From positions 64,373 to 128,372 of the forward strand of contig JACKBK010000006.1 in NCBI GenBank assembly GCA_020634555.1: 64,000 nt of DNA, in the 5' to 3' direction. Under the pieces are notes generated by a model that was not told the DNA's origin, ran no database searches, and saw only the letters and a program-made list of their open reading frames with translations. This stretch comes from Caldilineae bacterium. Lineage in GTDB: Bacteria > Chloroflexota > Anaerolineae > JAAEKA01. A program made the position numbers and the translations under genes. Shown piece after piece: positions 2,909 to 28,589 of the stretch. Each line of letters opens with the position of its first letter. The stretch's first letter is position 1.

Positions 2909-3709
2909 GTGACGGAGATTGCTTTGCTCAACAGCTACGATACCACCTTCATCGACCACTCTGCCGTGCTTGGCGACGGGTGTACGTTAGGCTTCGGTGC
3001 GGTGATCGAGGCGAATGCACAGATCGGACCGGGGTGCTCGATCGGCCACCACGCAGTGATCCATGCCGGCACACAGTTGGGCGCCGGCTGCCGCGTCGAG
3101 GCCCACGCGGTGCTGGGCAGGCAGCCGCGGCCAGCCGCCACCAGCACCGTGCGACCGCCGGCCCACCTGCCGCCGTTGGTCATCGGCGAAGGGACCAGCA
3201 TCGGTGCGGGTGCAGTAGCTTATGCCGGGACGACCATCGGCAGCCAGTGTCTGCTGGGCGACCACGCCTTTGTGCGCGAGAGCTGCACGATCGGCGACCT
3301 CGTGGTGGTTGGAACGCACGTGACCGTCGAAAACGAGGTCAGCATTGGCAGCCATAGCAAGCTGCAAACAGGCACCTACATCGCCGCCTGGACAACGATT
3401 GAGGAACACTGTTTTATCGCGCCGTGCGTCGTGACCAGCAACGACAACTTCATGGGCCGCACTGAGGCGCGCTTCGCCCAGCGCGGTGGTCCGACCATTC
3501 GCCGCGGCGCGCGTGTTGGCGCTAACGTCACACTTTTACCCAACGTCGAGGTCGGCGCAGAGGCTTTCGTCGCGGCCGGAGCGGTAGTCACGCGCGATGT
3601 TCCACCAGGCAAGCTGGTCATGGGCAGTCCGGCCCGTATCGTGCGCGATGTGCCACCGAGTGAGTTGCTGGAAGAGACAGAAATAACGGACTTGCTGAAT
3701 GCGCCATAA
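2909..3709 (+). CDS. Left-handed beta-helix (hexapeptide-repeat) sugar N-acyltransferase, WbpD-like
   Basis: Imperfect hexapeptide repeats run throughout (GDGCTLGFGAVIEANAQIGPGCSIGHHAVIHAGTQLGAGCRVEAHAVLG...). The C-terminal ...IRRGARVGANVTLLPNVEVGAEAFVAAGAVVTRDVPPGKLVMGSPARIV is typical of this family. GTG start. Confidence 0.75.
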   Translation: MTEIALLNSYDTTFIDHSAVLGDGCTLGFGAVIEANAQIGPGCSIGHHAVIHAGTQLGAGCRVEAHAVLGRQPRPAATSTVRPPAHLPPLVIGEGTSIGAGAVAYAGTTIGSQCLLGDHAFVRESCTIGDLVVVGTHVTVENEVSIGSHSKLQTGTYIAAWTTIEEHCFIAPCVVTSNDNFMGRTEARFAQRGGPTIRRGARVGANVTLLPNVEVGAEAFVAAGAVVTRDVPPGKLVMGSPARIVRDVPPSELLEETEITDLLNAP

Positions 3710-4148
3710 CGTGCAGGTTGATCAAAGCATCAAGATTGAACAGCCAGGCAACACGGTGTTAGCCTTCTCAAACGGAATCAGTTTCGCTGTCGTGGTCTCA
3801 CCGGATATTAAGCACGAGGCGATTCGGATATTGCGTGCTCGTGGAAAGAGCCGGGATGTCGCGCGTGTATTGGTGTTTGCTGCCGGTGTCTATCTCTTAC
3901 TTGCTGACTTTCTGGATAGCCTGGATCTGGTTGTTGTCGATACCGAATATGTCGGATATGACGCTTTGATCAAGGCGTTTCTGCTGCGCCACATTTGGCA
4001 GGAACACCCAATGTTTGATGGCCAGTGCATTATGTTTGCACAAGTAGGCAAAAAGTCACCGGCCCACGCGAAAGCCAATGCGGTGCGTCGACGTCAGGAC
4101 AAGGACTATCGTAAGTTGCAGTTACAAGAGGTAATAAGACTGTTGTGA
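3699..4148 (+). CDS. Hypothetical protein (149 aa), visibly lower GC than its neighbours
   Basis: ATG ORF overlapping the acyltransferase 3' end by 11 nt. I recognise no domain. It has one hydrophobic stretch (VLVFAAGVYLLLADFL) and a basic C-terminus (KKSPAHAKANAVRRRQDKDYRK). Its coding status rests only on ORF length and the lack of a competing ORF. Confidence 0.4.
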   Translation: MRHNVQVDQSIKIEQPGNTVLAFSNGISFAVVVSPDIKHEAIRILRARGKSRDVARVLVFAAGVYLLLADFLDSLDLVVVDTEYVGYDALIKAFLLRHIWQEHPMFDGQCIMFAQVGKKSPAHAKANAVRRRQDKDYRKLQLQEVIRLL

Positions 4149-4353
4149 GGAATCAGAAGATCGGGCGGGTCCCTTTCTGCCCAAATGGGCCGCCGGCCTT
4201 GTTGGCCAGGTGGGAACTGTTGTCAGGGTGTCACCCAAGAGTTAAGCCTCTCCTGCAGGGCGATGTTTCACGCCGGGGCGACCTGACCGCCCGATCTCTC
4301 TGCCCAAAGTATATCACAGTCTGTCAAGGTTTACCAAGAGGAGTTCACCGTTT

Positions 4354-5457
4354 ATGATCCCCATCCTGGATCTAAAAACTCAGTACGACTCGCTGCGCGT
4401 TGAGATCGCGGAGGCCATCAATCGGGTGTTGGAGAGCAGCCAGTTTGTGTTGGGGCCGGATGTGGCCGCGCTGGAGCGGGAGGTGGCTGCGTTCTGCGAC
4501 TGCGACTATGGTGTCGGTGTGGCGTCAGGCACCGATGCCCTGCGACTCTCGCTGGCTGCACTGAACATCGGCCCCGGCGACGAGGTGATCACCACGCCGT
4601 TCACCTTCGTCGCGACTGCCAATACCATCAGCCACAGCGGCGCGACGCCGGTCTTCGTTGACATCGAGCCCGACACGTTCAACATCGACCCGGCCGCGGT
4701 CGCCGCCGCCGTCACGCCGCGCACCAGGGCCATCGTGCCGGTGCATCTCTACGGCCAGCCGGCCGACATGGACGCGATCATGGATATCGCACGCCGTCAC
4801 GACCTGTACGTCATCGAGGACGCCGCCCAGGCCATTGGCGCAAGCTACAAAGGGCGGCGAGCGGGCAGTATCGGCACAGTGGGCTGCCTGAGCTTTTACC
4901 CGACCAAGAACCTGGGGGCGTACGGCGACGCCGGCATGGTCGTCACGGACGACGCGGCGCTGGCCGAACGGCTGGACCTGCTGCGGCGACAGGGCGGCAA
5001 GGATCGCTACTTTCACCAGGAACTGGGCTTCAACTCGCGGTTGGACAGCTTGCAGGCCGCGGTGCTGCGGGTCAAGCTGCGCTACCTGGACGGCTGGCAG
5101 GAGGCGCGCCAGGAGGTGGCAGCCCGCTACGACGCGATGTTGGCCGCGTCCGGCGTACCGGTGACGACGCCGGTCGTACGGCCAGATATGCGCCACGTCT
5201 ACCACCAGTACACGCTGCGCGCCCCGCGGCGGGACGAGCTGCTGGCGCACCTGAACAGCCGCGGCATCGGCGCCGTCGTTTACTACCCGCTGCCGCTGCA
5301 TCTGCAAGGGCTGTATGCCGATCTGGGATTGGGCGAAGGTTCGCTGCCTGTGGCCGAGCAGGCCGGACGCGAGGTGCTATCGCTGCCCATGTACCCTGAG
5401 CTGACCGAGACGCAGCAGGAGCAGGTGGTGGCGGCCATTGCTGAGTTCTACCGCTGA
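4354..5457 (+). CDS. DegT/DnrJ/EryC1/StrS-family PLP-dependent sugar aminotransferase
   Basis: The N-terminal MIPILDLKTQY...VLESSQFVLGPDV..LE.E.A, then ...GVASGTDALRLSL..., ...TPFTFVATANTI... and ...SFYPTKNLGAYGDAG are family hallmarks. SD aagaggag lies upstream. Confidence 0.9.
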   Translation: MIPILDLKTQYDSLRVEIAEAINRVLESSQFVLGPDVAALEREVAAFCDCDYGVGVASGTDALRLSLAALNIGPGDEVITTPFTFVATANTISHSGATPVFVDIEPDTFNIDPAAVAAAVTPRTRAIVPVHLYGQPADMDAIMDIARRHDLYVIEDAAQAIGASYKGRRAGSIGTVGCLSFYPTKNLGAYGDAGMVVTDDAALAERLDLLRRQGGKDRYFHQELGFNSRLDSLQAAVLRVKLRYLDGWQEARQEVAARYDAMLAASGVPVTTPVVRPDMRHVYHQYTLRAPRRDELLAHLNSRGIGAVVYYPLPLHLQGLYADLGLGEGSLPVAEQAGREVLSLPMYPELTETQQEQVVAAIAEFYR

Positions 5458-5509
5458 ATCTGCCGGATGAACGCTGCAACGGTATAATGCAGCCCGGACA
5501 GACCTTCCC

Positions 5510-6688
5510 ATGCAAACCCAGACGCGAGTGCAGACAAGCAGCGCAGTCAGAAGTTCGACTATTCCGAAAAAGTCGGACTTCTCAGAGTCGTCCTTCGCTG
5601 GCCTGACGGTTTGTGTGGTCGGTCCGCACTATCCGCGGCCGGGCGGCGTCTCCACGCAGGTAGAGATGCTGGAAAGCTGTCTGCGCGGCGAGGGCGCGAC
5701 GGTCCGCCCGGTGGACACCAACGTGCAATCGTTGCGACACCTGGGAAGGCCGGGGCGATGGCTGCTGCCCGCCGCGCAGGTGATGATTGTGCCGGTTCGA
5801 CTCTGGCGGGCAGCCGCTGGCGCGGATATAATCCACGCGCACCTGGCGTCGTATTGGGGCTTCTACCTGCCGATGCTGGCCGTGGCGCTGATCGGCAAGC
5901 TGCGCGGCGTGCCGTCCGTGGCGACCTACCACGGCGGCAAGGCTGCGGAATTTGTAACCGACCACAAAACCAGTGTCCGCGCGCTGCTAAACCGGCTGGA
6001 TGCCTTGATCGTCCTGTCGTCCTTTACCGGCCGGGTGTTTGAAGGTCTCGGCTTGAAGCCGGTCGTTGTCCCAAATGTGATCGACCTGCAACAGTTCCAA
6101 CCAGAACCGCCGGGACCGGGGTCCTCGCGGCTGTCCGAGCCAGATCGTCCGGCGTTGCTCTGGGTCAAGAGCTTCGACGACTCCGGCAACCCTGCACTGA
6201 TGGTCGAAGCGTTTGCGAGACTGCGCCGCGACCTTCCCAGAGCAACGCTGACCATGATCGGTGACGGCCCGCGCCTGCCAGACGCACGGGCACAGGCGGA
6301 GGCGCTCGCTACGCCGGTCTATTTTGCCGGCCGTGTCCCTTACGACGCGATGGCGCAGGCGTACGAGAAAGCCGACATCCTTGTGATTTCCAGCGCCGTA
6401 GACAACCAGCCCAACGTGCTGATCGAGGCCTCGGCCAGCGGGCTGCCGGTGGTTGCAACCGCGGTTGGCGGCATTCCCGACATGGTCGAGGACGGCGTGA
6501 ACGCTCTGCTGGTCGCACCAGACGACGCGGACGCGCTGGCAGCAGCCGTGTTGCAGGTCGCGCGCGACCCTAATCTGGCCGGTCGTCTTGGCCACGCCGC
6601 CGTTGAAAACGCCCAGAGGTACACGTGGATGCAGGTGCGCGGCCAACTGGCAGCAGTGTACCGACAGGTGATTCGAGGCGATCAATGA
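5510..6688 (+). CDS. Glycosyltransferase family 4 (GT-B); N-terminal boundary uncertain
   Basis: ...VCVVGPHYPRPGGVSTQVE... and the C-terminal ...ISSAVDNQPNVLIEASASGLPVVATAVGGIPDMVEDGVNALLV (an E-x7-E type motif). The only canonical in-frame start is ATG 5510. This places hairpin repeat copy 3 (5549-5582) inside codons 14-25. Confidence 0.8.
   Translation: MQTQTRVQTSSAVRSSTIPKKSDFSESSFAGLTVCVVGPHYPRPGGVSTQVEMLESCLRGEGATVRPVDTNVQSLRHLGRPGRWLLPAAQVMIVPVRLWRAAAGADIIHAHLASYWGFYLPMLAVALIGKLRGVPSVATYHGGKAAEFVTDHKTSVRALLNRLDALIVLSSFTGRVFEGLGLKPVVVPNVIDLQQFQPEPPGPGSSRLSEPDRPALLWVKSFDDSGNPALMVEAFARLRRDLPRATLTMIGDGPRLPDARAQAEALATPVYFAGRVPYDAMAQAYEKADILVISSAVDNQPNVLIEASASGLPVVATAVGGIPDMVEDGVNALLVAPDDADALAAAVLQVARDPNLAGRLGHAAVENAQRYTWMQVRGQLAAVYRQVIRGDQ
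5549..5582. repeat. Hairpin repeat family copy 3 (agaagttcgact-attccgaaaaa-gtcggacttct)
   Basis: Degenerate member of the same palindrome family, lying within the predicted 5' end of the GT4 ORF. Confidence 0.85.
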
Positions 6689-7632
6689 CCGAGCGCCCCC
6701 GCACGGCGTTGATCACCGGAGCAGCCGGCTTTTGCGGCAGCTATCTGGGCGAGTTGCTGTTGGGACAGGGCGTCCGCGTTGTTGGCGTCGACCGGGTGGC
6801 GTCAAGCGGCGCGCCGTATCGATTCGAGTCACTGGACCTGCGCGACGAGGCGGCTGTGCGTCGAATCGTTGCCGAGACACGGCCGGACTGGCTCGTACAC
6901 CTGGCTGCGCTCACCGACCCGGCCGCGCCCGCCGGCGACCTGTATCAAGTAAACGTATTGGCAACGATCCGTCTGCTGGAGGTTGTCCAGACCGCTGTCC
7001 CTGACTGCACGGTGCTTATCGCCGGCTCCAGCGCTCAGTACGGGCTGACCAGGCCGGATGAGAACCCGATCACTGAGGCGCAGCTTTTTCGACCGGTTAC
7101 GCAGTATGCTGTCAGCAAGGCGACGCAGGATATGGTCGGCGGCATGGCCAGCGCGGCCGGCCTGCCGGTCATCCGCACCCGCACCTTCAACATCGTAGGG
7201 CCGCGGCAAAGTCCGGCCTTTGTCACGGCGGCTTTTGCCCGCCAGATCGCCGAAATCGAGCACGGACTGCGCGAGCCGGTCATCGAGGTCGGCAACCTGG
7301 CAGCGCAGCGCGACTTCGTGGACGTGCGCGATGTGGCGCGGGCCTATTGGTTGGCGCTGGAACGGGGCCGGGCGGGCGCAATTTACAACGTCTGTTCCGG
7401 CCAGGGACGCCGCATTCAGGAGTTGCTGGACGGGCTGCTGGCCTTGTCCACCGTCCGCGACATCGAGGTACGCCGCGATCCGCAACGTTTGCAGCCGGCC
7501 GATGTGCCCGCACAGGTTGGCAGCTACGACCGCTTGCGCGCCGACACCGGCTGGCAACCGCAGATCCCCTGGGAACAGTCATTGCGCGATCTGCTGGACT
7601 ACTGGCGGGCGTCCATGAACACTGAACAGTGA
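6685..7632 (+). CDS. NAD(P)-dependent epimerase/dehydratase (extended SDR; GDP-6-deoxy-hexose reductase-like)
   Basis: The track ORF begins at 6625. I prefer ATG 6685, which makes an ATGA overlap with the upstream stop. This gives MTERPRTALITGAAGFCGSYL (GxxGxxG), then ...YAVSKATQD (YxxxK). Confidence 0.85.
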   Translation: MTERPRTALITGAAGFCGSYLGELLLGQGVRVVGVDRVASSGAPYRFESLDLRDEAAVRRIVAETRPDWLVHLAALTDPAAPAGDLYQVNVLATIRLLEVVQTAVPDCTVLIAGSSAQYGLTRPDENPITEAQLFRPVTQYAVSKATQDMVGGMASAAGLPVIRTRTFNIVGPRQSPAFVTAAFARQIAEIEHGLREPVIEVGNLAAQRDFVDVRDVARAYWLALERGRAGAIYNVCSGQGRRIQELLDGLLALSTVRDIEVRRDPQRLQPADVPAQVGSYDRLRADTGWQPQIPWEQSLRDLLDYWRASMNTEQ

Positions 7633-7696
7633 ACGGCGCGGTGGCCAGAGCAAGGTCGAGCGCCGGCGGCCGCATGCAAAACACAGAATACCTACC

Positions 7697-8716
7697 ATGA
7701 GCATGACTGATAAAAACGACAACGAACTGAACTGGTCGAGCCGGCAAGTGTTGGTCACCGGGGCTGGCGGGTTCATCGGCAGCCACCTGGTGGAGCGGCT
7801 GGCCGGCGAGGGTGCATCGGTGCGGGCTTTTGTGCGGTACACCTCTCGTGCGGATCTGGGCTTGCTTAGCCTGCTGCCAGCCGAGATGCTGGCGCGGGTG
7901 GAGATTGTGGCCGGCGATCTGCGTGATGTCGAGGCGGTACGCGGCGCGGTCAAGGGCGTCGATACGATCTTTCACCTTGGCGCTCTGATCGCTATTCCGT
8001 ACTCCTACGTCCACCCGCGCGAGGTGGTTGACACCAACGTGCTGGGAACGCTGAACGTGCTGATGGCGGCGCGCGACCATGGCGTGCGGCGGATGGTGCA
8101 CACCTCCACCAGCGAGGTCTACGGCACCGCTCAATATGTGCCCATCGACGAGAAGCATCCGCTGCAGGGCCAGTCGCCCTATTCAGCCAGCAAGATCGGA
8201 GCCGACAAGATCGTGGAGAGCTTCGTGCGCTCCTTCGAAACGCCGGTGGCCACGCTGCGGCCCTTCAACACCTACGGCCCGCGCCAGTCTGCCCGGGCCG
8301 TGATCCCGACCATCATCACCCAGGCGCTGGTCAGAGACGAGATCCGCCTCGGCTCGCTGACGCCACAGCGCGATTTCACCTTCGTGGCCGACACGGTGGA
8401 TGGCTTCATGCGCATGGCCAGCGTCGATGCCGCGGTCGGCCAGGAAGTGAACATCGGCGCCGACTCGACCATCTCCATCGGCGACCTGGCGCAGCGCATC
8501 CTGCGATTGGTGGGCAGGGATCTGCCCATCGTTGCCGACGACCAGCGCAAGCGGCCTGCGGGTAGCGAGGTGATGCGGTTGTGGGCTGACAACCGCAAGG
8601 CGGCCGCGTTGATCGGCTGGCGGCCGCGCGTTTCGCTGGATGAAGGGCTGGCGCTAACCATTGACTGGGTGCGCCAGAACCTGGCGCGGTTTCGGCCGGG
8701 AGTCTACGAAGTATGA
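7697..8716 (+). CDS. NAD-dependent NDP-sugar dehydratase/epimerase (extended SDR)
   Basis: VLVTGAGGFIGSHLVERL, ...TSTSEVYG... and ...YSASKIGADK form the catalytic S/Y/K triad context of 4,6-dehydratase/decarboxylase-type SDRs. Confidence 0.85.
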   Translation: MSMTDKNDNELNWSSRQVLVTGAGGFIGSHLVERLAGEGASVRAFVRYTSRADLGLLSLLPAEMLARVEIVAGDLRDVEAVRGAVKGVDTIFHLGALIAIPYSYVHPREVVDTNVLGTLNVLMAARDHGVRRMVHTSTSEVYGTAQYVPIDEKHPLQGQSPYSASKIGADKIVESFVRSFETPVATLRPFNTYGPRQSARAVIPTIITQALVRDEIRLGSLTPQRDFTFVADTVDGFMRMASVDAAVGQEVNIGADSTISIGDLAQRILRLVGRDLPIVADDQRKRPAGSEVMRLWADNRKAAALIGWRPRVSLDEGLALTIDWVRQNLARFRPGVYEV

Positions 8717-9420
8717 AAGCCGTCATTTTGGCCGGTGGGAAAGGGCGACGGCTGCGGCCCTACACCACCGTGCTGCCCAAGCCGCTGATGCCGCTGGGCG
8801 AGATGCCCATCGTCGAGGTCGTGCTGCGCCAACTGGCCGCCAACGGCTTCCGCGAGGTAACACTGGCCGTCGGCTATCTGGCCGAACTGATGATGGCTTA
8901 TTGCGGCGATGGCAGCAAGTTCGGCCTGCGGTTGCGCTACTCGCGCGAGGAAGAGCCACTGGGCACCGCCGGCCCGCTGGCATTGATCGAAGGGCTGACC
9001 GACACCACACTGGTGATGAACGGCGATGTGCTGACCACCCTTGACATGCGGGCAATGGTGGCGCGCCATCGCACCAGCGGCGCGGTAGCCACCATCGCCA
9101 CCCACCGCCGCCAGCATCAGATCAACTACGGCATTATCGAGAGCGACGGCGCCAATCGTGTCACCGCCTATATCGAGAAGCCGACGCACCACTATCAGGT
9201 CAGCATGGGACTCTATCTGCTGGAGCCGGCCGTGCTGGCGCGCATCGCACCCGGCGAATACCTGGACCTCCCCGACCTCGTGCGCCAACTGATGGCCGAT
9301 GGCCAACCGGTGATGGCCTATCCATTCGATGGCTACTGGCGAGACATCGGCCGCCACGACGACTACGAGCAGGCCGTTGAGGAGTTCGAGACCATGCAGG
9401 CGCAGTTGCTGCCTGGCTGA
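8713..9420 (+). CDS. Sugar-1-phosphate nucleotidyltransferase (NTP_transferase family)
   Basis: MKAVILAGGKGRRLRPYTTVLPKPLMPLGEMPI is the canonical G-x-G-x-R-L pyrophosphorylase signature. ATGA overlap with the upstream gene. Confidence 0.85.
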   Translation: MKAVILAGGKGRRLRPYTTVLPKPLMPLGEMPIVEVVLRQLAANGFREVTLAVGYLAELMMAYCGDGSKFGLRLRYSREEEPLGTAGPLALIEGLTDTTLVMNGDVLTTLDMRAMVARHRTSGAVATIATHRRQHQINYGIIESDGANRVTAYIEKPTHHYQVSMGLYLLEPAVLARIAPGEYLDLPDLVRQLMADGQPVMAYPFDGYWRDIGRHDDYEQAVEEFETMQAQLLPG

Positions 9421-9450
9421 AGGCACTATGTCCAGTGAGTTGACTGCAAT

Positions 9451-10935
9451 ATGAGCAACAACCTGGCGCGGCGCAGCATAGCGTCTGTCGGCTGGAACGC
9501 GGGCGCCAGCGTGATCACAATCACAGTCTTGTTTGTGCGGTCGGTGTTGCTGGCGCGCCTGCTGCCGGTGGATGTGTTCGGTGTCTATGCCGGTGTGGGC
9601 GCGCTGATCGCGTTGACCGTCGTGCTACCAAACTTCGGAATGGGCGCCGCATTCCTGCACCGCGCGCCGGAGACGGAGGACGAGGAACGCGCAGCCGCCG
9701 TACACTTCACGCTGAAGCTGATTTTCACACTGCTCTGGGCCGCGGCGATGATTGCGTGGGGGCTGATTTTTACGCAGGGACAAACGCGCACAACACTGAT
9801 AGTGGTGACGATTGCCACAGCCGGCATCCAGCTTGCCCAGACCCCGGATCTGATCCTGACGCGGCGCGTGGTGCATCGGCGACTGGCACTGCTGCAAAGC
9901 GCTACAGCGATTTCGACGACACTGGTAGCTGTCTTTCTTGCCTGGCGCGGCGTGACGTTGTGGGCGCTGCTGGCGACAGATATTGTCACCCTGGTGGTGA
10001 CGCTGGTGATGCTTTACGTATGGCGGCCGGTGTGGCGGCCGCGGCTGGCTTGGGTGCCGGATGTCGTGCGCTATTATCTGCGCTTCGGCAGCAAGGTAGT
10101 GACCTCGGTTGGGTTGCTGCAAGCGCTGAACAACGTGGACGATCTGTGGACTCGCTACTATCTTGGCACCACCGCGATGGGCTACTACTCACGCGCCTAC
10201 ACCTTCGCCACGTATCCGCGGCGTGTGCTTGCCGGTCCGGTCAACGATGTCGCCGGCGGCACCTACGCTGAGCTCAAGCGCGATCGGCGGCGATTGTCGC
10301 AGGCGTTCTTTCGGTCGAATGCACTGCTGGTGCGGACCGGCTTTTTCATGGGCGGCGTGCTGGCTTTGATCGCGCCCGAACTGGTGATGATCCTGCTGGG
10401 AGAGAAATGGCTGCCAATGCTCCAGGCATTCCGGCTCATGTTGGTCTTCACCCTGCTCGACCCGATCAAGCTGACAGTCGGCAACCTGTTTGTGGCGGTG
10501 GGCCAGCCTGAGCTTCTGATTCGGACCCGGCTTGTGCAACTGGCAGTGCTTGTAATCGGTTTGTATACTCTCGGTTTTCGGCTGGGCATTACCGGTGTTG
10601 CGCTGGTCGTTGATGTGATGCTGATCGTCGGCATGGTGGTTTTGTTTCACCAAGCGCGTGTTCATGTCGATTATTCCTTGCGACAACTTTTCGCTGTTCC
10701 GACCCTGGCGTTGATTCTGGGACTGGCTGCCGGCGCCGGCGCCATGTTACTGGCTGGCGATCAGGCCACCGCCAACCTGTTGATGGCCGTGTTGAAGGGC
10801 GGCGCCTTTTCGGTGGTCTTCGTCGCCGTTCTCTGGATATTCGAACATCGCCAGCTTACGTCCATGGCCATTCAAATAGGCATACGTCTGCCGTGGCTGT
10901 CGTTGGGTCGCTCACGCCCTGACGACGCCGAGTGA
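9451..10935 (+). CDS. Polysaccharide flippase (Wzx-like, MOP superfamily)
   Basis: 494 aa with about 12-14 hydrophobic helices. It is located inside the glycan locus and has the typical Wzx N-terminus (...SVGWNAGASVITITVLFVRSVLLARLL). Confidence 0.75.
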   Translation: MSNNLARRSIASVGWNAGASVITITVLFVRSVLLARLLPVDVFGVYAGVGALIALTVVLPNFGMGAAFLHRAPETEDEERAAAVHFTLKLIFTLLWAAAMIAWGLIFTQGQTRTTLIVVTIATAGIQLAQTPDLILTRRVVHRRLALLQSATAISTTLVAVFLAWRGVTLWALLATDIVTLVVTLVMLYVWRPVWRPRLAWVPDVVRYYLRFGSKVVTSVGLLQALNNVDDLWTRYYLGTTAMGYYSRAYTFATYPRRVLAGPVNDVAGGTYAELKRDRRRLSQAFFRSNALLVRTGFFMGGVLALIAPELVMILLGEKWLPMLQAFRLMLVFTLLDPIKLTVGNLFVAVGQPELLIRTRLVQLAVLVIGLYTLGFRLGITGVALVVDVMLIVGMVVLFHQARVHVDYSLRQLFAVPTLALILGLAAGAGAMLLAGDQATANLLMAVLKGGAFSVVFVAVLWIFEHRQLTSMAIQIGIRLPWLSLGRSRPDDAE

Positions 10936-20022: not shown

Positions 20023-20338
20023 CGGCGCGACGTTCAACTTTTTCGGCAAAGTTGAACGTCTGGATGTGCGATACCCTAAAAGATCGACTTTGCGGAAAAA
20101 GTCGAACTTTCCACGGACCTGCCATGAAACTTCTTTGTTTGACACCGCGCTTGCCCTTCCCGCCTGACCGGAGGGACCAGCGGCGCGACGTTCAACTTTT
20201 TCGGCAAAGTTGAACGTCTGGATGTGCGATACCCTAAAAGTTCGACTTTGCGGAAAAAGTCGATCTTTCCACGGACCTGCCATGAAACTTCTTTGTTTGA
20301 CACCGCGCTTGCCCTTCCCGCCTGACCGGGGCGACCGG
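20023..20338 (+). repeat. 158-bp tandem duplication (2 units) carrying two hairpin-family repeats plus the start codon and first 16 codons of the downstream GT4 gene
   Basis: 20023-20171 and 20181-20329 differ at only 2 of 149 positions. ATGAAACTTCTTTGTTTGACACCGCGC... occurs at both 20124 and 20282. Hairpins lie at 20029-20060, 20078-20110, 20187-20218 and 20236-20268. Confidence 0.9.
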
Positions 20339-21514: not shown

Positions 21515-22530
21515 CCATTCGTTTCGGACTGATTGGCTGTGGCAGAGTGGCGCCCCGACACGCGCAGTCGATCCAACAGATCCATGAAGCATCACTGGTG
21601 GCGGTAGCCGACATCAAGCCCAGCCGGGCTGACCACTTCAGCCGCGAATACAGCGCAGCCGCGCACTACGACCACCGTGACCTGCTGGAGCGCCAGGACA
21701 TCGACGCGGTGAGCGTCTGTGTCCCCAGCGGCCTGCACGCACAGGTTGTCCTCGACGCCCTGGAGGCAGGCAAACACGTGCTGGTCGAAAAGCCCATTGC
21801 ACTCATCTTGGCGGACGCTGACCGCATGATCGCCGCCGCTCAGGAACGCGGACTGACGTTGGGCGTGGTGCTGCAGAATCGCTACAACTCACCCATGCAG
21901 ATGCTGCGACTCGCCATCGACGAGGGACTGCTGGGGAGGCTGTATCTCGGCAACGCATGCGTGCGCTGGTATCGTCCCCAGTCATACTACGAGGATGACT
22001 GGCACGGCACCTGGGCCATGGACGGCGGGGCGCTGATGAACCAAAGCATCCACCATATCGACGCCCTGCAGTGGTTCATGGGACCGGTGCAGACAGTCTC
22101 GGCCTACTCGGCCACACTGGCGCATCAGATGGAGGCGGAGGATGTGGGCGTCGCGGTGCTGCGTTTTGCCAGCGGCGCGCTGGCGACGGTCGAAGGTTCG
22201 ACGTTGACGTGGCCGCAAAACCTGGAAGGATCGGTGTCGATCTTCGGCGAGCACGGATCGGTGAAGGTCGGCGGCACGGCGCTGAACCGCGTCACGCTCT
22301 GGAAGGTACGCGGACAACTGGAGCAGGAGTCGGAGATACTGACCAGCCAGCGGGTCGATCCACCATCGGTTTACGGCTACAGCCATCGCGAGGTGATTCG
22401 TGACTTCGCCGCGGCACTGTTGGAAGGTCGTTCTCCGGGGACTCCTGGCCCCGAGGCGCGCAAGTCGCTGGCTTTGGTGCTGGCTATCTACCAGTCGGCG
22501 AGCGAGGGACGAGAGGTGAAGTTGGGCTGA
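21511..22530 (+). CDS. Gfo/Idh/MocA-family NAD-dependent sugar oxidoreductase (WbpB-like)
   Basis: MTIRFGLIGCGRVAPRHAQ..., ...HVLVEKPIAL... and ...GGALMNQSIHHIDAL... The TTG start overlaps the upstream stop (TTGA). Confidence 0.85.
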   Translation: MTIRFGLIGCGRVAPRHAQSIQQIHEASLVAVADIKPSRADHFSREYSAAAHYDHRDLLERQDIDAVSVCVPSGLHAQVVLDALEAGKHVLVEKPIALILADADRMIAAAQERGLTLGVVLQNRYNSPMQMLRLAIDEGLLGRLYLGNACVRWYRPQSYYEDDWHGTWAMDGGALMNQSIHHIDALQWFMGPVQTVSAYSATLAHQMEAEDVGVAVLRFASGALATVEGSTLTWPQNLEGSVSIFGEHGSVKVGGTALNRVTLWKVRGQLEQESEILTSQRVDPPSVYGYSHREVIRDFAAALLEGRSPGTPGPEARKSLALVLAIYQSASEGREVKLG

Positions 22531-22569
22531 CGGCTCACGGCTTGGCATTCGCCAACCGCCTTCCCGCTG

Positions 22570-22578
22570 TGCTATAAT
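22570..22578 (+). promoter_or_regulatory. Extended -10 promoter element TGCTATAAT
   Basis: TGC + TATAAT (22573-22578) sits in the 144-nt gap upstream of the ligase/TPR gene. I see no good -35. Confidence 0.4.
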
Positions 22579-22674
22579 CCTGCGACTCCCCGGGAGCCCG
22601 CTAATGGTTTACGAACACCACCCCACCGCTCAACAGATCGACGCCGACCTGTCGGATAATCTTGCTAACAATTC

Positions 22675-25600
22675 ATGACAACAAAACTAACTCGCTTCTG
22701 CGAGGCAATCATCGAAGCCGGATGGCTGGCGGCGCTGATCTACGTGCCGCTTTTCTTCAACGTTCATTCCAGCCGGGTGTTCGAGCCGGATAAGATCAGC
22801 GTGTTGCGGTCCATCGCTCTGGTGATGGCTGTTGCCTGGCTGATCAAGGTGCTCAACGACGGTCTTGGCCGCGGTGGCGACGACGAAGGCGAGCGAGTCT
22901 CTCTGTGGCAGAGAATCGTCAGGACGCCGCTGGTGCTGCCGACGCTATTGCTGGTGCTGGCTTACCTGATCAGCACGGTCTTCTCTATCAACCCGCGCAT
23001 CAGCTTCTTTGGCTCCTACCAGCGACTGCAGGGCACGTATTCGACGCTGTCGTACATCGTGATCTTCTTTCTGGTGCTGGGACACCTGCGCCGGCCGGCG
23101 CAATGGCGGCGCATGGCCTATGTCATCATCCTGGTCAGCGTGCCGATTGCGATCTACGGCTTGTTGCAGCGCGCCGACCTGGATCCGCTGCCATGGGGCG
23201 GCGACGTACAGCGACGTATCGCCGGCAACATGGGGAATGCGATCTTTGTGGCCGCGTACCTGATCATGGCTTTTTACCTGACGCTGGAGCGGCTGTTGGA
23301 GCATCTGGGCAGGCTCGTAGGTGGGGATGACAACCGGCAATCGATCATGGATGCTGTCTTGGCCGGCTTCTACCTGTTCATCATTGCAGTACAGAGCCTG
23401 GCGATTCTCTTTACCCAAAGCCGCGGCCCGCTGCTGGGCTGGCTGGCCGGGATTTTTGTGTTTATCCTACTCTTCCTGCTCGGACTGCGCGGACGAGCCG
23501 GTGAAGAGGAAAACAAGGGCGGATTTGTACGGCTTTTGGAGCGCTGGCTCTGGCTGCCATGGATCGGTTTCGCGTTGGCCGGCCTTGTGTTCCTGGTGGT
23601 GTTCAACATTCCGGGATCGCCGCTGGCTCCCCTGCGGACCAACCCCATCATTGGCCGCCTGGGCACCGCGTTGGATCTGGAGAGCCAGACCGCGCGCGTG
23701 CGCACGCTGATCTGGGAAGGCGCTTCGGAACTAATTGGCCCACACGACCCGCTGCAATATCCGGTCACGGGTGGCGAAGGGGACGTCACAGCGATGACAC
23801 CGGACCGGCTAAACGCGATCCGCCCGCTGATCGGCTACGGCCCCGAGTCGATGTGGATGGCGTTCAACCCCTTCTACCCGCCCGATCTGGCACACTACGA
23901 GTCGCGCAACGCGTCTCCTGACCGCTCACACAACGAGACCTTCGACTCGCTGGTGATCACCGGCATCCTTGGATTCATCGCCTATATGGCGCTCTTCCTT
24001 AGCATCTTCTTCTTTAGCCTGTCGTGGTTGGGCCTGATGCGCAGCCGCGGGCAGAAGATCCTCTTCTCTGTTCTGGCGATAGGCGGCGCGTTGTTAGGGT
24101 CGCTGCTGGCCTATGCCGCGATGGGCAACTGGGTGCTGTTCGGCATCGCTCTGCCAGCCGGGATGAGTCTGGGAATTCTGGCCTACATCTTGGTAGCAGC
24201 CATCTGGAACGAGGTCGGCCAGCATCCCATGCGTCTCGGCCAACGCGAGCTGATCGTCATGACCGTCCTGTCGACGATCATCGCCCACTTCATCGAGATC
24301 CACTTCGGCATCGCCATCGCGTCGACGCGCACCTACTTCTGGATCTGGAGCGCGGTGCTGGTGGTAGTGGGGATGGGCTGGCTCAAGTTGGGCGAACCCG
24401 CCGAGCAGCCAGCGCCACAGCCGGAACCTGTGGCTGCAACGGGCCGCCGCAAAAAGGGTCGGGGGCGCCGTCGTGTGCCGGCACCGTCCGGCACGACATC
24501 CACACCTGGCCAGTGGGACGAGGTGATCATCTACGCCGTGACGCTGGGCATTATGCTCTTCATCATTGCGTTCAACTACATCATCAACCCCAACGTCCTG
24601 GACCTGCGCAGCACCAACCCGATTGTCGTCTTCATTCAGTCGTTCACCACTCGGGTAGACACCAAGCTGGGCGAGCGGTTTGTCAGCCTCGGCCTGTTCT
24701 GGATGGTGACGTTCGTGGTGCTGGTGGGCACGGTAGTCGCGCTGCTGGATATCGCCCGCAGCCGGGCTACCGCAGTGACAGGGCGATGGCTGGGCAAGGC
24801 TGCGCTGATCTCGCTGGCGATCTCGCTGGGCATGTTCCTTGGTCTTGGCTTGCTGCACGCGGCGACAATTGCCCGCGACGCGGCCCGCCAGCAGCCCGGC
24901 CGCTCGATCACATTGGAGCAACTGGCCAGCATGTCGGCCAGCCATGTCACCGAGCTGTACATCATCAGCTTGCTGCTCATATTTCTGCTGGCGTTCACAG
25001 TCTGGCGCACACAGCGCGGAACGAATAGCTGGCTGGGCGCAGGCGGCTGGCTGGCGCCCGCGGGCGGTGCAGTGCTGGCAGTGGTCGGCCTGCTGATCAT
25101 CTTCAACCTCAACGCCAGCCTGGTACGAGCCGACATTGTCTATAAACAAGGGCAGGCCTACGACAACGCAGGACGTTATACCGAAGCGATCCAGCTCTAC
25201 CAGATGGCGCTCGACGAGGAGCCAAAAGAAGACTACTACTGGTTGTTCCTTGGGCGCGCTCAACTGGAGCAGGCGCGTGCCGCCTCAGGTGCCCAGCAAG
25301 CTAGTTTCCTGGCCAACGCGGAAGAGTCGCTGCTGCGCGCGCAGGAGTTGAACCCGCTGAACACCGACCACTCGGCTAATCTGGGCCGGCTTTACCTGGC
25401 CAAATCGCAGATGACCACCGGGGAGGGGCGAGCCGAAGCCGTTCAGAAGGCACTGGACTACTACTCCGTCGCCACACGGCTGAGCCCCAACGCAGCCCAT
25501 CTGCACAACGAGTACGGCACTGCGTATCAGGTGGCCGGTCAAATCGACAAGGCGTTGGAGCAGTTCGACATCTCGTTGGCGCTGGACCAGGAATACCCGG

Positions 25601-25962
25601 ACACCTATCGACGGCTGGGTGATTTCTACCAGCGCACTAACCAGAACGACAAGGCTATCGAAGCCTACGAGGCTGGTGTGAAGATCGCGCCGCGCGATGT
25701 GACTTTCCACAGCAATCTTGGTTTCTTGTACGCCGAAGCCGGCGACAGAGAAAAGGCGATCCAGGAAAATCTGACGGTGGTGGACAGGCGTCCCAACGAC
25801 CTGGCGTCGCTCCGCAACCTGGCCATCCTCTACAGCGAGGTCGATGACTTCGACAACGCGCTGGTGTTCGCTCAACGAGCGCTGGAACTGGTCACAAAGG
25901 ACGAGGACCGGGCAGCCTTGCAGACATTGATCGACCAGCTTCAGGCGCAGCGCGGCGGCTAG
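22675..25962 (+). CDS. O-antigen polymerase/ligase-like (Wzy_C-type) polytopic membrane protein fused to C-terminal TPR repeats
   Basis: 1095 aa with more than 12 TM helices. ...LFTQSRGPLLGWLAGIFVF... resembles the O-antigen ligase domain core. A basic loop (RRKKGRGRRR) is present. The C-terminal ~280 aa carry repeated TPR-like units (...YDNAGRYTEAIQLYQMALDEEP..., ...AYQVAGQIDKALEQFDISLALD..., ...DKAIEAYEAGVKIAP...). Confidence 0.7.
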   Translation: MTTKLTRFCEAIIEAGWLAALIYVPLFFNVHSSRVFEPDKISVLRSIALVMAVAWLIKVLNDGLGRGGDDEGERVSLWQRIVRTPLVLPTLLLVLAYLISTVFSINPRISFFGSYQRLQGTYSTLSYIVIFFLVLGHLRRPAQWRRMAYVIILVSVPIAIYGLLQRADLDPLPWGGDVQRRIAGNMGNAIFVAAYLIMAFYLTLERLLEHLGRLVGGDDNRQSIMDAVLAGFYLFIIAVQSLAILFTQSRGPLLGWLAGIFVFILLFLLGLRGRAGEEENKGGFVRLLERWLWLPWIGFALAGLVFLVVFNIPGSPLAPLRTNPIIGRLGTALDLESQTARVRTLIWEGASELIGPHDPLQYPVTGGEGDVTAMTPDRLNAIRPLIGYGPESMWMAFNPFYPPDLAHYESRNASPDRSHNETFDSLVITGILGFIAYMALFLSIFFFSLSWLGLMRSRGQKILFSVLAIGGALLGSLLAYAAMGNWVLFGIALPAGMSLGILAYILVAAIWNEVGQHPMRLGQRELIVMTVLSTIIAHFIEIHFGIAIASTRTYFWIWSAVLVVVGMGWLKLGEPAEQPAPQPEPVAATGRRKKGRGRRRVPAPSGTTSTPGQWDEVIIYAVTLGIMLFIIAFNYIINPNVLDLRSTNPIVVFIQSFTTRVDTKLGERFVSLGLFWMVTFVVLVGTVVALLDIARSRATAVTGRWLGKAALISLAISLGMFLGLGLLHAATIARDAARQQPGRSITLEQLASMSASHVTELYIISLLLIFLLAFTVWRTQRGTNSWLGAGGWLAPAGGAVLAVVGLLIIFNLNASLVRADIVYKQGQAYDNAGRYTEAIQLYQMALDEEPKEDYYWLFLGRAQLEQARAASGAQQASFLANAEESLLRAQELNPLNTDHSANLGRLYLAKSQMTTGEGRAEAVQKALDYYSVATRLSPNAAHLHNEYGTAYQVAGQIDKALEQFDISLALDQEYPDTYRRLGDFYQRTNQNDKAIEAYEAGVKIAPRDVTFHSNLGFLYAEAGDREKAIQENLTVVDRRPNDLASLRNLAILYSEVDDFDNALVFAQRALELVTKDEDRAALQTLIDQLQAQRGG

Positions 25963-25983
25963 GCGGAACCAGAGCAACGCTTC

Positions 25984-26997
25984 ATGCTTCACGCAGCAGG
26001 TATCTACATTCTGGTTGCCATCACAGCGTTGGTTGCTGTGGTGCTGGCGACGCCGGTGGTTCGACGCGTTGCCTGGCGCTTTGGGTTCATCGACCAGCCC
26101 AGCTTCCGCAAGGTACACAGCACGCCAATGCCGCGGCTGGGTGGGCTGGCGATCTACGCCGGGTTTATTGTGGCGCTGCTGGTGTTGGGCGCACGGTTTC
26201 GCTTCAACGAGGCGGTCGGCATCCTGGTCGGCGCGACGCTGGTGTCGGTAGTCGGCGGGATCGACGACCGCAACCCCGTTGCCCCATTGCCCAAGCTGTT
26301 GGCACAAGCAGTGGCGGCCGGTATACTGATCATCAGCGGCGTTCAGGTGGAGGTGTTCGACCAGCAGTGGCTGAATGTGGTTGTCACTGTGATCTGGGTT
26401 GTCGGCATCACCAACGCGCTCAACTTCCTGGACAACATGGATGGCCTGTCGGCCGGCGTGGCCGCGGTGGCGGCCGCGTTTTTCCTGCTGTTGGCCGCGC
26501 TCAACGACCAGTATCTGGTGGGCGCGCTGTCGGCGGCGCTGTTGGGGGCATGCATCGGCTTCCTGGTGTACAATTTCAACCCGGCCAGCATCTTCATGGG
26601 TGACAGCGGCTCGCTGTTCATTGGTTTTGTGCTGGCGGCGCTGGGCATCAAGCTGCGCTTCCCGGCTAACACGGATATCGTGACCTGGATGGGGCCGGTG
26701 CTGGTGCTGGGGCTGCCGATTCTCGACACGACGTTGGTAACTATCTCGCGGCTGCGGCGGGGCAAAAACCCGCTGACCACGGCCGGCAAGGATCATATTT
26801 CCCACCGACTCGCACGCCTGACCGGCTCGAAGCGCGAGGCCGTCTTGTTGTGTTATCTGATTGGCTGCGGCTTTGGCATGACGGCAATCTTTGTCACCAC
26901 GGCGTCGATCGTCGAAGGCTATCTTGTCGGGGTTGTCATGGCTGTGAGCGGCCTGGCAATGATCTGGTGGTTGGAAGCACGGGTAGGATACGAGTAG
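25984..26997 (+). CDS. Polyprenyl-phosphate N-acetylhexosamine-1-phosphate transferase (MraY/WecA family, initiating transferase)
   Basis: ...[17 protein letters not shown]..., ...GGIDDRNPV..., ...[17 protein letters not shown]... and ...[18 protein letters not shown] are the conserved glycosyltransferase family 4 (MraY-like) motifs. Confidence 0.9.
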
Positions 26998-27214
26998 GCG
27001 TGTCGCCGTCACTCCCGCGAAGGCGGGAGTCCAGAACGTTGTCGAGGCGAGTGATCGATTGCGCGTGTGGACGCATGGATGCCCGCCTTCGCGGGCATGA
27101 CGAAGTAGGCGTGTCGCCGTCACTCCCGCGAAGGCGGGAGTCCAGAACGTTGTCCAGACGAGTGATCGATTGCGCGTGTGGACGTATGGATGCCCGCCTT
27201 CGCGGGCATGACGA
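26994..27214. repeat. Two tandem 111-bp units of a MITE-like element built from CCCGC-GAAG-GCGGG hairpins
   Basis: Units start at 26994 and 27105. Each has gtcactcccgcgaaggcgggagtccag at the left end and tggatgcccgccttcgcgggcatgac at the right end, so the ends are imperfect inverted repeats of each other. The repeat starts inside the stop codon of the upstream gene. Confidence 0.85.
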
Positions 27215-27245
27215 GAAGACGAAGTGTGACGACTGACGAGGTTCA

Positions 27246-28589
27246 ATGTCACTAAGTACAAAAATCAGCGACAAGACCGCCACCATCGGCATCGTCGGGT
27301 TGGGGTATGTCGGGCTGCCGCACGCGGTGGCATTTGCAACAGCCGGCTTTCCGGTGATCGGCATCGACGTCAACGGCGAGCGGGTCGCGGCTATCAACCG
27401 CGGCGTGAGCCAGATTCCCGACGTGCCATCGGAACAACTGGCGCCGCTGGTGGCTACCCACCGGCTGTCCGCATCCACCGATCCAGGCCATCTGGTCGAG
27501 GCCGATGTAACGCTGATCTGTGTGCCGACGCCGTTCGACGACATGAAGACGCCCGATCTGCGCTATATTGTGGCCGCCGCGCGGGGCATCGCCGCCAACC
27601 TGCGGCCCGACACCATGGTGATCCTGCAGAGCACCACCTATCCCGGCACAACTGAGGAGGTGGTGCAACCGATTCTGGAGAACAGCGGCCTAAAAGCCGG
27701 CCGCGACTTTCATCTGGTGTTCTCGCCGGAACGCATCGATCCGGGCAACCGCCAGTACAGTGCCCACAACATCCCCAAGGTCGTAGGCGGACTGACTCCG
27801 CAGTGTACTGAGTTAGCCTGCGTGCTGTTCGGCCACCTGACGCCGGACGTACACCCGGTCTCAACGCCGCGGGCGGCGGAGATGACCAAGCTGCTGGAGA
27901 ACATCTTCCGCAGCGTCAACATCGCGATGGTCAACGAGTTGGCGGTGCTGATGGAGCGGATGCAGATCGATATCTGGGAAGTCATTGATGCGGCGCGCAC
28001 CAAGCCTTTCGGCTTCATGGCGTTCACACCAGGTCCGGGCGTCGGTGGCCACTGTATCCCGGTCGATCCGTATTACCTGTCGTGGAAGGCGCGCGAGTTC
28101 GACTTCTACACCAAGTTCATCGAGCTGGCGGCTGAGGTCAACGCTGACATGCCCGACCATGTGGTGCGCAAGGTGATCGCCGGCCTGAATCTGGACGGCA
28201 AGCCGGTGCGCGGCTCCACGGTGCTGATCCTGGGCGTCGCCTTCAAGCGCGACATCGACGACGCCCGCAACTCGCCGGCGCAGCGTGTCATCGAGCTGTT
28301 ATTGGACGCAGGCGCGCATATCGAGTATCATGACCCATTTGTAGCGACCTTTCGCACCGGCGGCAACGCGCTTCATCGCAGACCAACGACTTTGCGCAGC
28401 ATCTCACTTGATGAGGGGCTGAACGCGGCCGATGCAGTGGTCATCCTGACCGGCCATACGACGGTTGATTATGCCCAGGTAGTAAGCCGGGTACGAGTGG
28501 TGGTGGATGCGGTCAACGTGACCGGAGAGGTGGCCGAAGCCGCCGGCCGTGTGATCCGCCTGGGCGCACCGATGCCGGTTAGTCTGTGA
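27246..28589 (+). CDS. UDP-N-acetyl-hexosamine 6-dehydrogenase (nucleotide-sugar dehydrogenase family; WbpA/WecC/Cap5O-like)
   Basis: ...IGIVGLGYVGLPHAVAFA..., ...GGHCIPVDPYYL... (catalytic Cys) and ...GVAFKRDIDDARNSPA... Confidence 0.9.
   Translation: MSLSTKISDKTATIGIVGLGYVGLPHAVAFATAGFPVIGIDVNGERVAAINRGVSQIPDVPSEQLAPLVATHRLSASTDPGHLVEADVTLICVPTPFDDMKTPDLRYIVAAARGIAANLRPDTMVILQSTTYPGTTEEVVQPILENSGLKAGRDFHLVFSPERIDPGNRQYSAHNIPKVVGGLTPQCTELACVLFGHLTPDVHPVSTPRAAEMTKLLENIFRSVNIAMVNELAVLMERMQIDIWEVIDAARTKPFGFMAFTPGPGVGGHCIPVDPYYLSWKAREFDFYTKFIELAAEVNADMPDHVVRKVIAGLNLDGKPVRGSTVLILGVAFKRDIDDARNSPAQRVIELLLDAGAHIEYHDPFVATFRTGGNALHRRPTTLRSISLDEGLNAADAVVILTGHTTVDYAQVVSRVRVVVDAVNVTGEVAEAAGRVIRLGAPMPVSL

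Follow-up and report, generated by a model that had tools for sequence, protein, structure and literature searches.

What kind of glycan is built by a gene cluster that carries three separate sulfotransferase-like genes, and is such a number exceptional? The question is raised by positions 2909-28589 of a 64-kb stretch of DNA (hereafter the window, whose numbering is used for all coordinates; contig JACKBK010000006.1, positions 64,373 to 128,372, assembly GCA_020634555.1, Caldilineae bacterium), which comes from the metagenome-assembled genome (MAG) of an uncultured filamentous bacterium of the Anaerolineae class of Chloroflexota. A first-pass annotation, made from the sequence letters, had described the region as a Wzx/Wzy-type locus for a 'candidate sulfated, N-acylated amino-sugar polymer' and had called the presence of three sulfotransferases in one locus striking. 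We consider it fairly probable that the locus makes a sulfated hetero-oligosaccharide envelope glycan via a Wzx-dependent route, in which one predicted sulfotransferase (ST3) would act on the glycan core and the other two (ST1 and ST2) would belong to a variable cassette. The region comprises 23 closely spaced open reading frames (ORFs) over 26 kb, all but one on the + strand, with intergenic gaps that mostly range from -64 to +64 bp and reach 248 bp at most, and has a GC content of ~0.63. Gene families were assigned with Pfam, and with NCBIfam for equivalogs; each gene that had been named in the first pass was recovered by ORF calling and Pfam.

Three predicted sulfotransferases of distinct families

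The three genes are ST1 (10946/10979..11815, + strand), ST2 (12797..13807, + strand) and ST3 (18976..19980), the last being the single - strand ORF of the locus. The 5′-phosphosulfate-binding (5′-PSB) and 3′-phosphate-binding (3′-PB) motifs of sulfotransferases that depend on 3′-phosphoadenosine-5′-phosphosulfate (PAPS), which the first-pass annotation had reported for all three, are readable in each and invariant across the alignments of their homologues, and the PAPS-binding residues are present in ST1, ST2 and ST3. Scored with hidden Markov models, ST2 and ST3 pass the Pfam cut-offs, whereas ST1 falls 0.2 bit short on PF03567 (Sulfotransfer_2). We conclude from sequence and fold that all three are PAPS-type sulfotransferases, their activity being predicted. 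The identity between ST2 and ST3 is 30% across 99 aa (E 2.5e-4), and ST1 has no significant similarity to either, which rules out that the genes are tandem paralogues or recent duplicates.

ST3 is matched by PF13469 (Sulfotransfer_3) with 89.4 bits and by PF00685 with 34.4 bits, both above threshold, and its only NCBIfam match is to NoeE at 20.7 bits. Among 24 homologues, the invariant elements are the 5′-PSB P12-R13-x-G15-T16-T17, E35, the EKTPEN block (E148-N153) and the 3′-PB R174...S182; E35 aligns to the Glu of the 'GEETR' segment of TPST2 and is the candidate catalytic residue. The AlphaFold2 (AF2) model (pLDDT 82) has its nearest folds in TPST1/2, Stf9 and the CurM sulfotransferase, at E 2e-7 to 1e-5, with Stf1 and the OLS sulfotransferase domain also among the matches. 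The mean column identity over the 24 sequences is 69%, which is unusually high for a tailoring enzyme and argues for a conserved acceptor. There are 616 ST3 homologues, with more than 100 clusters at 60-70% identity, and the named records, annotated 'sulfotransferase', come from Anaerolineae, Promineifilaceae and Chloroflexota MAGs; a look-up of the exact ST3 sequence gave no entry. A promoter-like site is located just upstream of ST3 on the minus strand (20016-19987).

ST2 matches PF13469 with 42.5 bits against a cut-off of 27. Its R52/G54/T56 and R200/P202/S208 are invariant among 26 sequences, and in the PDB its profile matches only the CurM and OLS sulfotransferase domains and TPST. ST1 is more divergent. 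A few members of its family do have precomputed PF03567 or PF00685 matches, and neither ST1 nor ST2 has an NCBIfam match. The residues K14/T15/G16, H69 and R89/P91/S97 of ST1 are invariant in an alignment of 31 sequences, and the family profile, whose PDB matches are SULTs only, aligns these elements with the PKxGTT motif, the catalytic His and the RNPKDxxVS motif of the cytosolic SULTs (SULT1C3, SULT1C2), making the invariant H69 the candidate catalytic residue. The AF2 model of ST1 is of high confidence (pLDDT 94, pTM 0.91), and its best 44 Foldseek matches in the PDB are all PAP(S)-binding entries of the sulfotransferase fold; the TM scores of 0.28-0.45 and best E of 1.7e-3 indicate that the fold is divergent. 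The ST1 family, which has no curated model of its own, is not small: of 1.84 billion cluster representatives, 525 match at E<=1e-30.

Conserved core and variable cassette in related genomes

The comparison across related genomes that had been proposed in the first pass reveals a conserved core around ST3 and a hypervariable slot that holds ST1 and ST2. A scan for ST3 in one genome per GTDB species returned 49 loci, with no cultured isolate among the 49 genome matches. The nearest are in the Chloroflexota MAGs Caldilineales ABC2.10 (91% identity), Anaerolineales HK-STAS-CHLO-17 (89%) and MFD09779.bin.2.73 (89%); the labels Caldilineales, Anaerolineales and Promineifilaceae all occur among these closest loci. 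Synteny of the locus is preserved in these three species, with protein identities of 80-93%. More distant loci are found in many Promineifilaceae and Ardenticatenaceae MAGs (54-71%). The core consists of ST3 and the two glycosyltransferases that flank it, GT4c (17703..18911, + strand; PF13692 93.4 bits) and GT4d of the TIGR03087 (stp1) family (20210..21514, + strand; 325.8 bits against a cut-off of 316.65). It recurs in ~35 loci at 52-91% identity (mostly 60-70% for ST3), often with a WecA, a Wzx and a Wzy_C-TPR protein alongside, and the ST3 gene always lies on the strand opposite to its neighbours. GT4c orthologues (57-84% identical) adjoin ST3 in 12 of the 16 related loci that were tabulated, GT4d orthologues are 49-83% identical beside ST3, and both flanking GT4 orthologues are detected in 10 of the 16.

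Two further observations concern ST3 orthologues elsewhere (related loci are denoted by L numbers). Two Holophagae MAGs of the Acidobacteriota (L026, L027) carry orthologues (52-56% identity) that are again flanked by the GT4 genes and accompanied by Wzx and WecA, which points either to inter-phylum transfer of the core module or to mis-binning. In three long-read MAGs, including Ca. Promineofilum glycogenicum, the orthologue is present as two overlapping ORFs (L036 9668-11009, L037 10026-10989, L042 10087-10996), which may reflect a frameshift sequencing error or a pseudogene.

The hypervariable slot lies between Wzx and a DesI-like aminotransferase gene. It contains ST1, a FemAB-like GNAT gene (11805..12743, + strand; Acetyltransf_6, PF13480 41.9 bits) and ST2 in the window, the GNAT gene and ST2 in L009, a different Sulfotransfer_3 gene with a WbqC-like gene in L008, ATP-grasp and methyltransferase-like genes in L001 and L019, and four sulfotransferases with a pyridoxal-phosphate (PLP) decarboxylase and an ATP-grasp gene in L057. 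ST1 itself is a low-GC accessory gene (GC 0.554 against ~0.63 for the locus; GC at third codon positions 0.65). It is missing from the syntenic locus L009, an 89% identical relative in which Wzx directly adjoins the GNAT gene (L009 17289-19687). Given this absence and its base composition, ST1 looks like a recent horizontal insertion. Elsewhere, ST1-family genes always reside in glycan loci, near a Wzx or ABC exporter and another sulfotransferase, with a DegT neighbour in two of the three contexts read, and ST1- and ST2-family genes adjoin DegT and amide-forming enzymes in glycan loci of the Wzx or ABC type. For ST2, a DegT gene and an amide-forming enzyme are adjacent in L009, L028, L057 and L059, and the GNAT gene recurs with ST2 and the DesI-like gene in L009 (73% identical) and L028 (53%). 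By these neighbourhoods, ST2 appears linked to an amino-sugar acylation cassette.

Two of the relatives carry unusual gene combinations. In L057 (Logan SRR33304589; 960-7014), an Orn/DAP/Arg-type PLP decarboxylase and an ATP-grasp ligase stand between the four sulfotransferases, directly upstream of DegT, suggesting that the amino sugar bears an amide substituent derived from an amino acid. In L058 (GCA_004196275.1; 6001-10364), an ST2 homologue and a 667-aa formylglycine-type sulfatase (PF00884) are ~1.3 kb apart, separated by a single small ORF. Enzymes that add and remove sulfate are thus near each other, and the ST2 homologue is also near a PMT_2-TPR glycosyltransferase-like membrane protein.

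The number of sulfotransferases varies from locus to locus. Related loci hold one to six sulfotransferase-like genes, the upper figure being reached in L010 (up to six such ORFs, ST3 included), and in about half of the loci with ST3 one or more additional sulfotransferases are encoded within 10 kb. With about half of these Anaerolineae relatives thus carrying at least two, three sulfotransferases are normal for the clade, and the view that the number is exceptional has to be rejected there.

Predicted sugar pathways and tailoring enzymes

The gene content suggests two amino-sugar pathways. The first is represented by homologues of all four enzymes of the WbpA/B/E/D route. These are a WbpA/WecC-like NDP-sugar 6-dehydrogenase (27246..28589, + strand; TIGR03026 424.8 bits against 189.8, three UDPG_MGDP_dh Pfam domains), a WlbA/WbpB-like 3-dehydrogenase of the GFO/IDH/MocA family (21511..22530, + strand; PF01408, PF02894), a sugar C-3 aminotransferase of the DegT family (DegT1; 4354..5457, + strand; DegT 429.9 bits) and a QdtC/WlbB(WbpD)-like hexapeptide 3-N-acetyltransferase (Hexapep1; 2909..3709, + strand; Hexapep 125 bits). 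The 3-dehydrogenase matches the PDB entries 3q2k (1.7e-82) and 3q2i (2.7e-79), which we take to be WlbA, a UDP-GlcNAcA 3-dehydrogenase. DegT1 matches the C-3 aminotransferases DesV, QdtB and WbpE at ~1e-98 to 1e-115 (2oga 1e-113, QdtB 7e-101, WbpE 8e-98), and Hexapep1 matches QdtC (1.5e-23) and 3mqg, a Bordetella LPS (lipopolysaccharide) biosynthesis acetyltransferase (2.7e-15). The predicted product of this WbpA/B/E/D-type route is a sugar of the UDP-2,3-diacetamido-2,3-dideoxy-glucuronic acid type, for which a gluco configuration is assumed by default over a manno one, as no WbpI/WlbD 2-epimerase is seen in the locus.

The second predicted pathway leads to an NDP-4-amino-4,6-dideoxyhexose. 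It would proceed via a sugar-1-phosphate nucleotidylyltransferase (8713..9420, + strand; NTP_transferase 153.8 bits, with NCBIfam matches), a LegB-like NAD-dependent NDP-hexose 4,6-dehydratase (7697..8716, + strand; TIGR04180 441 bits against a cut-off of 475) and the DesI-like NDP-4-keto-6-deoxyhexose 4-aminotransferase (13804..15018, + strand; TIGR04427 544.5 bits against a cut-off of 650, DegT 363.8 bits). The FemAB-like GNAT, which has no PDB sequence match, is the presumed N-acylating enzyme of the 4-amino sugar. An NDP-sugar epimerase or dehydratase of the short-chain dehydrogenase/reductase (SDR) type is encoded upstream (6625..7632, + strand); its Epimerase match of 167.5 bits begins at aa 28, its matches to NCBIfam equivalogs are all weak, and its true start is probably near 6700. 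A second hexapeptide acyltransferase (Hexapep2; 17119..17646, + strand; Hexapep 55.7 bits, NCBIfam WcaF family 92 bits, below cut-off) is WcaF/WbbJ-like and a predicted O-acetyltransferase. The tailoring set of the first-pass annotation is thus borne out in full, with DegT genes at 4354 and 13804, Hexapep genes at 2909 and 17119 and Acetyltransf_6 at 11805. Two amino-sugar pathways together with the GNAT and Hexapep genes make the N-acylated amino-sugar reading well founded.

Assembly, proposed route and alternatives

Priming is assigned to a polyprenyl-phosphate HexNAc-1-phosphate transferase of the WecA/MraY family (25984..26997, + strand; PF00953 123.7 bits, TIGR02380 WecA 118.9 bits, below cut-off). 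Extension is assigned to GT4c, GT4d and three further glycosyltransferases: GT4a (5510..6688, + strand; Glyco_trans_1_4 113.8 bits, Glycos_transf_1), a GT2 enzyme (15015..15926, + strand; PF00535 81.3 bits) and GT4b (15936..17087, + strand; PF13477, PF13439, PF00534). Where six glycosyltransferases had been counted before, we find five (5510, 15015, 15936, 17703 and 20210) plus the WecA-type primer. The Wzx-type MOP flippase (9451..10935, + strand) has multiple hydrophobic segments and matches Polysacc_synt_3 (PF13440, 130.3 bits), PF01943 (55.7 bits) and the NCBIfam MOP flippase (100.9 bits). Downstream, a 1095-aa polytopic protein (22675..25962, + strand) combines ~18-20 hydrophobic segments in residues 1-820 with a C-terminal TPR array that matches many TPR families. 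The earlier assignments of the initiating transferase, flippase and polymerase/ligase-TPR protein agree with these PF00953, PF13440 and Wzy_C plus TPR matches. The Wzy_C-TPR protein is the only candidate Wzy polymerase of the locus (PF04932 36.8 bits against 31.7); its identity is 87-90% in L008 and L019, the closest two loci in which it is covered, and 37-39% across the clade. PF04932 spans ligases and O-oligosaccharyltransferases as well as some polymerases, and the protein could be any of the three.

No polysaccharide co-polymerase (PCP; Wzz/Wzc) acting as chain-length regulator and no outer-membrane polysaccharide exporter (OPX) were found among the Pfam-scanned ORFs of the 64-kb window. 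Polymerisation is not established, because no PCP was found, a single Wzy_C protein is present and PF04932 is a broad family. Of the description given in the first pass, the sulfated and N-acylated amino-sugar parts stand as candidates by gene content, whereas 'polymer' is not established. Chloroflexota lack BAM (β-barrel assembly machinery) and LPS genes and are considered monoderm or 'neoderm', with envelope layers of unknown composition (PMC13319060). Without BAM and LPS, the absence of an OPX or other outer-membrane exporter is expected; the exporter noted as missing in the first pass was indeed not found among the scanned ORFs of the window, but this is probably no gap. Nor would the product be an O-antigen on lipid A, since the phylum lacks LPS genes.

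In the route that we propose, a lipid-linked hetero-oligosaccharide would be assembled on the cytoplasmic face of the membrane, with WecA-type priming and extension by the five glycosyltransferases. One feed would be the UDP-2,3-diacetamido-2,3-dideoxy-glucuronic acid type sugar supplied by the 6-dehydrogenase, 3-dehydrogenase, DegT1 and Hexapep1, and the other the NDP-4-amino-4,6-dideoxyhexose, its amine acylated by the FemAB-like GNAT. The PAPS-dependent ST1-ST3, with up to three sulfations, and the O-acetyltransferase would decorate the unit before Wzx flips it, and outside the membrane the Wzy_C-TPR protein would polymerise the unit or hand it to its eventual acceptor, yielding an envelope or sheath glycan of strongly anionic character. 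A conserved core of the glycan may be the target of ST3 and the GT4 pair beside it, and ST1 and ST2 may form a fast-swapping cassette that acts on or near the N-acylated 4-amino sugar and diversifies the substituent, as in O-antigen serotype loci. Within this scheme we infer the acceptors of the sulfotransferases (from gene neighbourhood only), the order of the steps, the choice between a polymerised and a ligated unit, and sulfation itself.

Several points weigh against this reading. In the literature, we found no report of a sulfated glycan from any Chloroflexota, and nothing on glycan sulfation by Anaerolineae or Chloroflexi sulfotransferases or on Promineofilum sulfate metabolism; a mat metagenome study reported no PF13469 genes in its two Chloroflexi MAGs (PMC9723792). 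No PAPS-synthesis gene (sat, cysDN or cysC) occurs in the scanned ORFs of the window or in the 56 loci L001-L056; the first-pass annotation had already noted that these genes, Wzz/Wzc and OPX were missing, which holds for the ORFs scanned in the 64-kb window. A search with E. coli CysC as query likewise found nothing in the window ORFs and L001-L056, a result that covers ~10 kb of flank per locus and has little bearing on whole genomes. ST1 stays below the curated thresholds of PF03567 (21.8 against 22.0 bits) and PF00685 (17.9 against 22 bits). The nearest folds of ST3 are protein-tyrosine, glycolipid and polyketide sulfotransferases, none of them a glycan sulfotransferase, and homology therefore does not indicate its acceptor. 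Finally, with a single Wzy_C-family protein and no chain-length regulator found, a Wzy-type polymer is not established.

This last point bears on a possible, if unlikely, alternative, in which the same sulfated oligosaccharide stays unpolymerised and single units are attached by the Wzy_C-TPR protein, as a ligase of the WaaL/PglL/WsaB type, to a protein of the S-layer or sheath (O-glycosylation) or to some other acceptor in the envelope. Besides the lone Wzy_C-family protein without PCP/Wzz, the breadth of PF04932 and the lack of LPS in the host phylum, this is consistent with the large C-terminal TPR array, which suggests protein binding, and with a weak match of Wzx to the NCBIfam 'O-glycosylation flippase' (91.7 bits, far under cut-off). 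However, the locus contains no candidate acceptor protein. The catalytic type of the Wzy_C-TPR protein is not assignable, as its membrane part has no sequence relative in the PDB, and five glycosyltransferases, two sugar pathways and a hypervariable cassette would suit a repeat-unit polymer equally well.

It is improbable that at least one of the sulfotransferases, notably ST3, acts on something other than a glycan, be it a protein tyrosine (TPST/RaxST-like), a glycolipid (Stf-like) or a small metabolite, and sits in the locus by co-regulation only. TPST1/2, the mycobacterial Stf9, Stf1 and the CurM and OLS sulfotransferase domains are its neighbours by structure and sequence, and the gene has its own strand and promoter-like site. 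Yet in the related loci examined, the two Holophagae MAGs included, ST3 is flanked by glycosyltransferase genes across 52-91% identity, ST1 and ST2 homologues consistently adjoin amino-sugar genes, and PF13469 is so broad a family that likeness of fold is no predictor of the acceptor. Least probable is that the sulfotransferase genes are non-functional here, through lack of PAPS or decay, and the glycan unsulfated; the lack of PAPS genes in the sequences searched, the recent look of ST1 and the split ST3 orthologues would fit, but none of the three ORFs is disrupted, no motif residue has been lost, the 69% column identity of ST3 implies strong purifying selection, and the split ORFs come from long-read MAGs, where we infer frameshift errors to be common.

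The Wzx-dependent sulfated envelope glycan thus remains our preferred reading, and it admits a bolder version, which we offer tentatively and regard as rather doubtful. ST3, the two GT4 enzymes, WecA and the Wzy_C-TPR protein would make a clade-wide sulfated structural glycan, forming one of the outer layers or the sheath of filamentous Anaerolineae (Promineifilaceae/Ardenticatenales-like), and ST1 and ST2 would in addition sulfate the N-acyl or amino substituent of the 4-amino-4,6-dideoxyhexose, as an O-sulfated amide side chain or by N-sulfation. To our knowledge, sulfation of such a substituent has not been described for bacterial glycans.

Comparison with known systems

Sulfated LPS and capsules occur in rhizobia and in some marine Proteobacteria. 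Bacterial sulfated polysaccharides have in recent papers still been stated to be known only from cyanobacteria (PMC8205485, PMC13390465). The closest characterised system is the synechan xss cluster of Synechocystis sp. PCC 6803, which has two sulfotransferases, eight glycosyltransferases and Wzx/Wzy/PCP and whose product was measured to contain sulfate (Maeda et al. 2021, PMC8205485). Both are loci for a Wzx-dependent hetero-oligosaccharide that encode multiple glycosyltransferases and two or more sulfotransferases from different subfamilies, and in both the PAPS genes and the exporter are outside the cluster or absent. The co-clustering typical of xss is found here with three sulfotransferases, five glycosyltransferases, WecA and Wzx within 26 kb. 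The differences are that xss has two sulfotransferases rather than three, a separate Wzy and PCP, a chromosomal OPX and a diderm host, whereas the window locus has a Wzy_C-TPR fusion, no PCP or OPX that we could find, and a host phylum without BAM or LPS. Synechan consists of neutral hexoses and rhamnose, in contrast to the diamino-uronic acid and 4-amino-6-deoxyhexose pathways and N-/O-acyltransferases found here, and sulfate has been measured for synechan, whereas the window locus is known from its genes alone.

A second comparison is offered by wps-1 of Actinoplanes missouriensis, where two sulfotransferases are part of a cluster of the Wzx/Wzy type and a sulfated polysaccharide is predicted only (2026, PMC13390465). 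It likewise combines a Wzx/Wzy-type gene set with sulfotransferases of different families in a non-cyanobacterial monoderm, but it differs in having a recognisable Wzy and Wzz, a glycoside hydrolase and a kinase-like protein; it is associated with sporangium formation phenotypes, and a sulfotransferase core conserved throughout a clade has not been reported from it. The WbpA/B/E/D (WlbA-C) pathway of Pseudomonas aeruginosa O5 and Bordetella LPS uses the same four enzyme types as the window locus, in which the genes are scattered rather than contiguous, no 2-epimerase is seen and the product would enter a non-LPS glycan. The rhizobial and mycobacterial sulfotransferases NodH, LpsS and Stf0/Stf1/Stf9 belong to the same superfamily, are PAPS-dependent and modify glycoconjugates, and the ST3 fold matches Stf9 and Stf1. 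They are, however, distant in sequence (as the 20.7-bit match of ST3 to NoeE illustrates), and their substrates are Nod factors, LPS and trehalose lipids rather than Wzx-flipped units.

Against this background, the novelty lies in the phylum, in an ST3 core that recurs clade-wide, in the fusion of Wzy_C with TPR, in the chemistry of the amino sugars and in an ST1 family that lacks a curated model. Every component family is already known and the logic is that of xss, making the reading a solid, testable prediction that holds no surprise of principle.

Other features of the window

Within the locus, a 149-aa ORF (3699..4148, + strand) has no Pfam, NCBIfam or PHROG match, a GC content of 0.50 against ~0.63 in its neighbours and one hydrophobic segment, and may be a foreign insertion or a non-gene. 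The flanks are of housekeeping character, with ResB-like and uridine kinase genes upstream and a double cyclophilin and a DAG-kinase-like gene downstream. The uridine-kinase-family gene (2151-2783) was considered as an APS kinase and rejected, its match being to PRK/uridine kinase (138.7 bits) with none to APS_kinase. The sole RNA gene detected in the window by Rfam and tRNA scans is a tRNA-Thr (CGT) at 535-609 (+ strand), outside the locus.

Further downstream, a 505-aa ORF without a family match (31004-32521, + strand) overlaps a well-supported SAM methyltransferase gene (TPMT/Methyltransf_25; 31226-31981, - strand) and is probably spurious, as is the ORF at 32518-33225 (+ strand), which overlies a BPD_transp_2 permease gene. 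At 46441-53118, a SWIM zinc-finger protein and a 1076-aa SNF2/DUF3670 helicase (- strand) adjoin a 696-aa STAND/AAA_16-like NTPase (+ strand) in what may be a defence or remodelling island. A 715-aa ORF (54880-57027, - strand) joins a regulator with LacI-type helix-turn-helix and periplasmic-binding-protein domains to a C-terminal URO-D-like domain (50.5 bits) and is either an unusual fusion or two merged ORFs.

Implications

A conserved ST3 in many Anaerolineae glycan loci would bring within the predicted range of glycan sulfation an abundant phylum, uncultured for the most part, that is common in activated sludge, soils and sediments, and the locus provides a concrete gene set for asking what the multilayered Chloroflexota envelope is composed of. 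The hypervariable cassette suggests serotype-like diversification. If the proposal is true, an anionic, sulfated, uronic-acid-rich surface would bear on the floc and filament properties of wastewater communities and on metal binding, as well as on recognition by phages and predators and on sulfatase-based carbon cycling in the environment. Should the clade-wide structural glycan prove real, it would give the phylum its first known sulfated envelope polymer.

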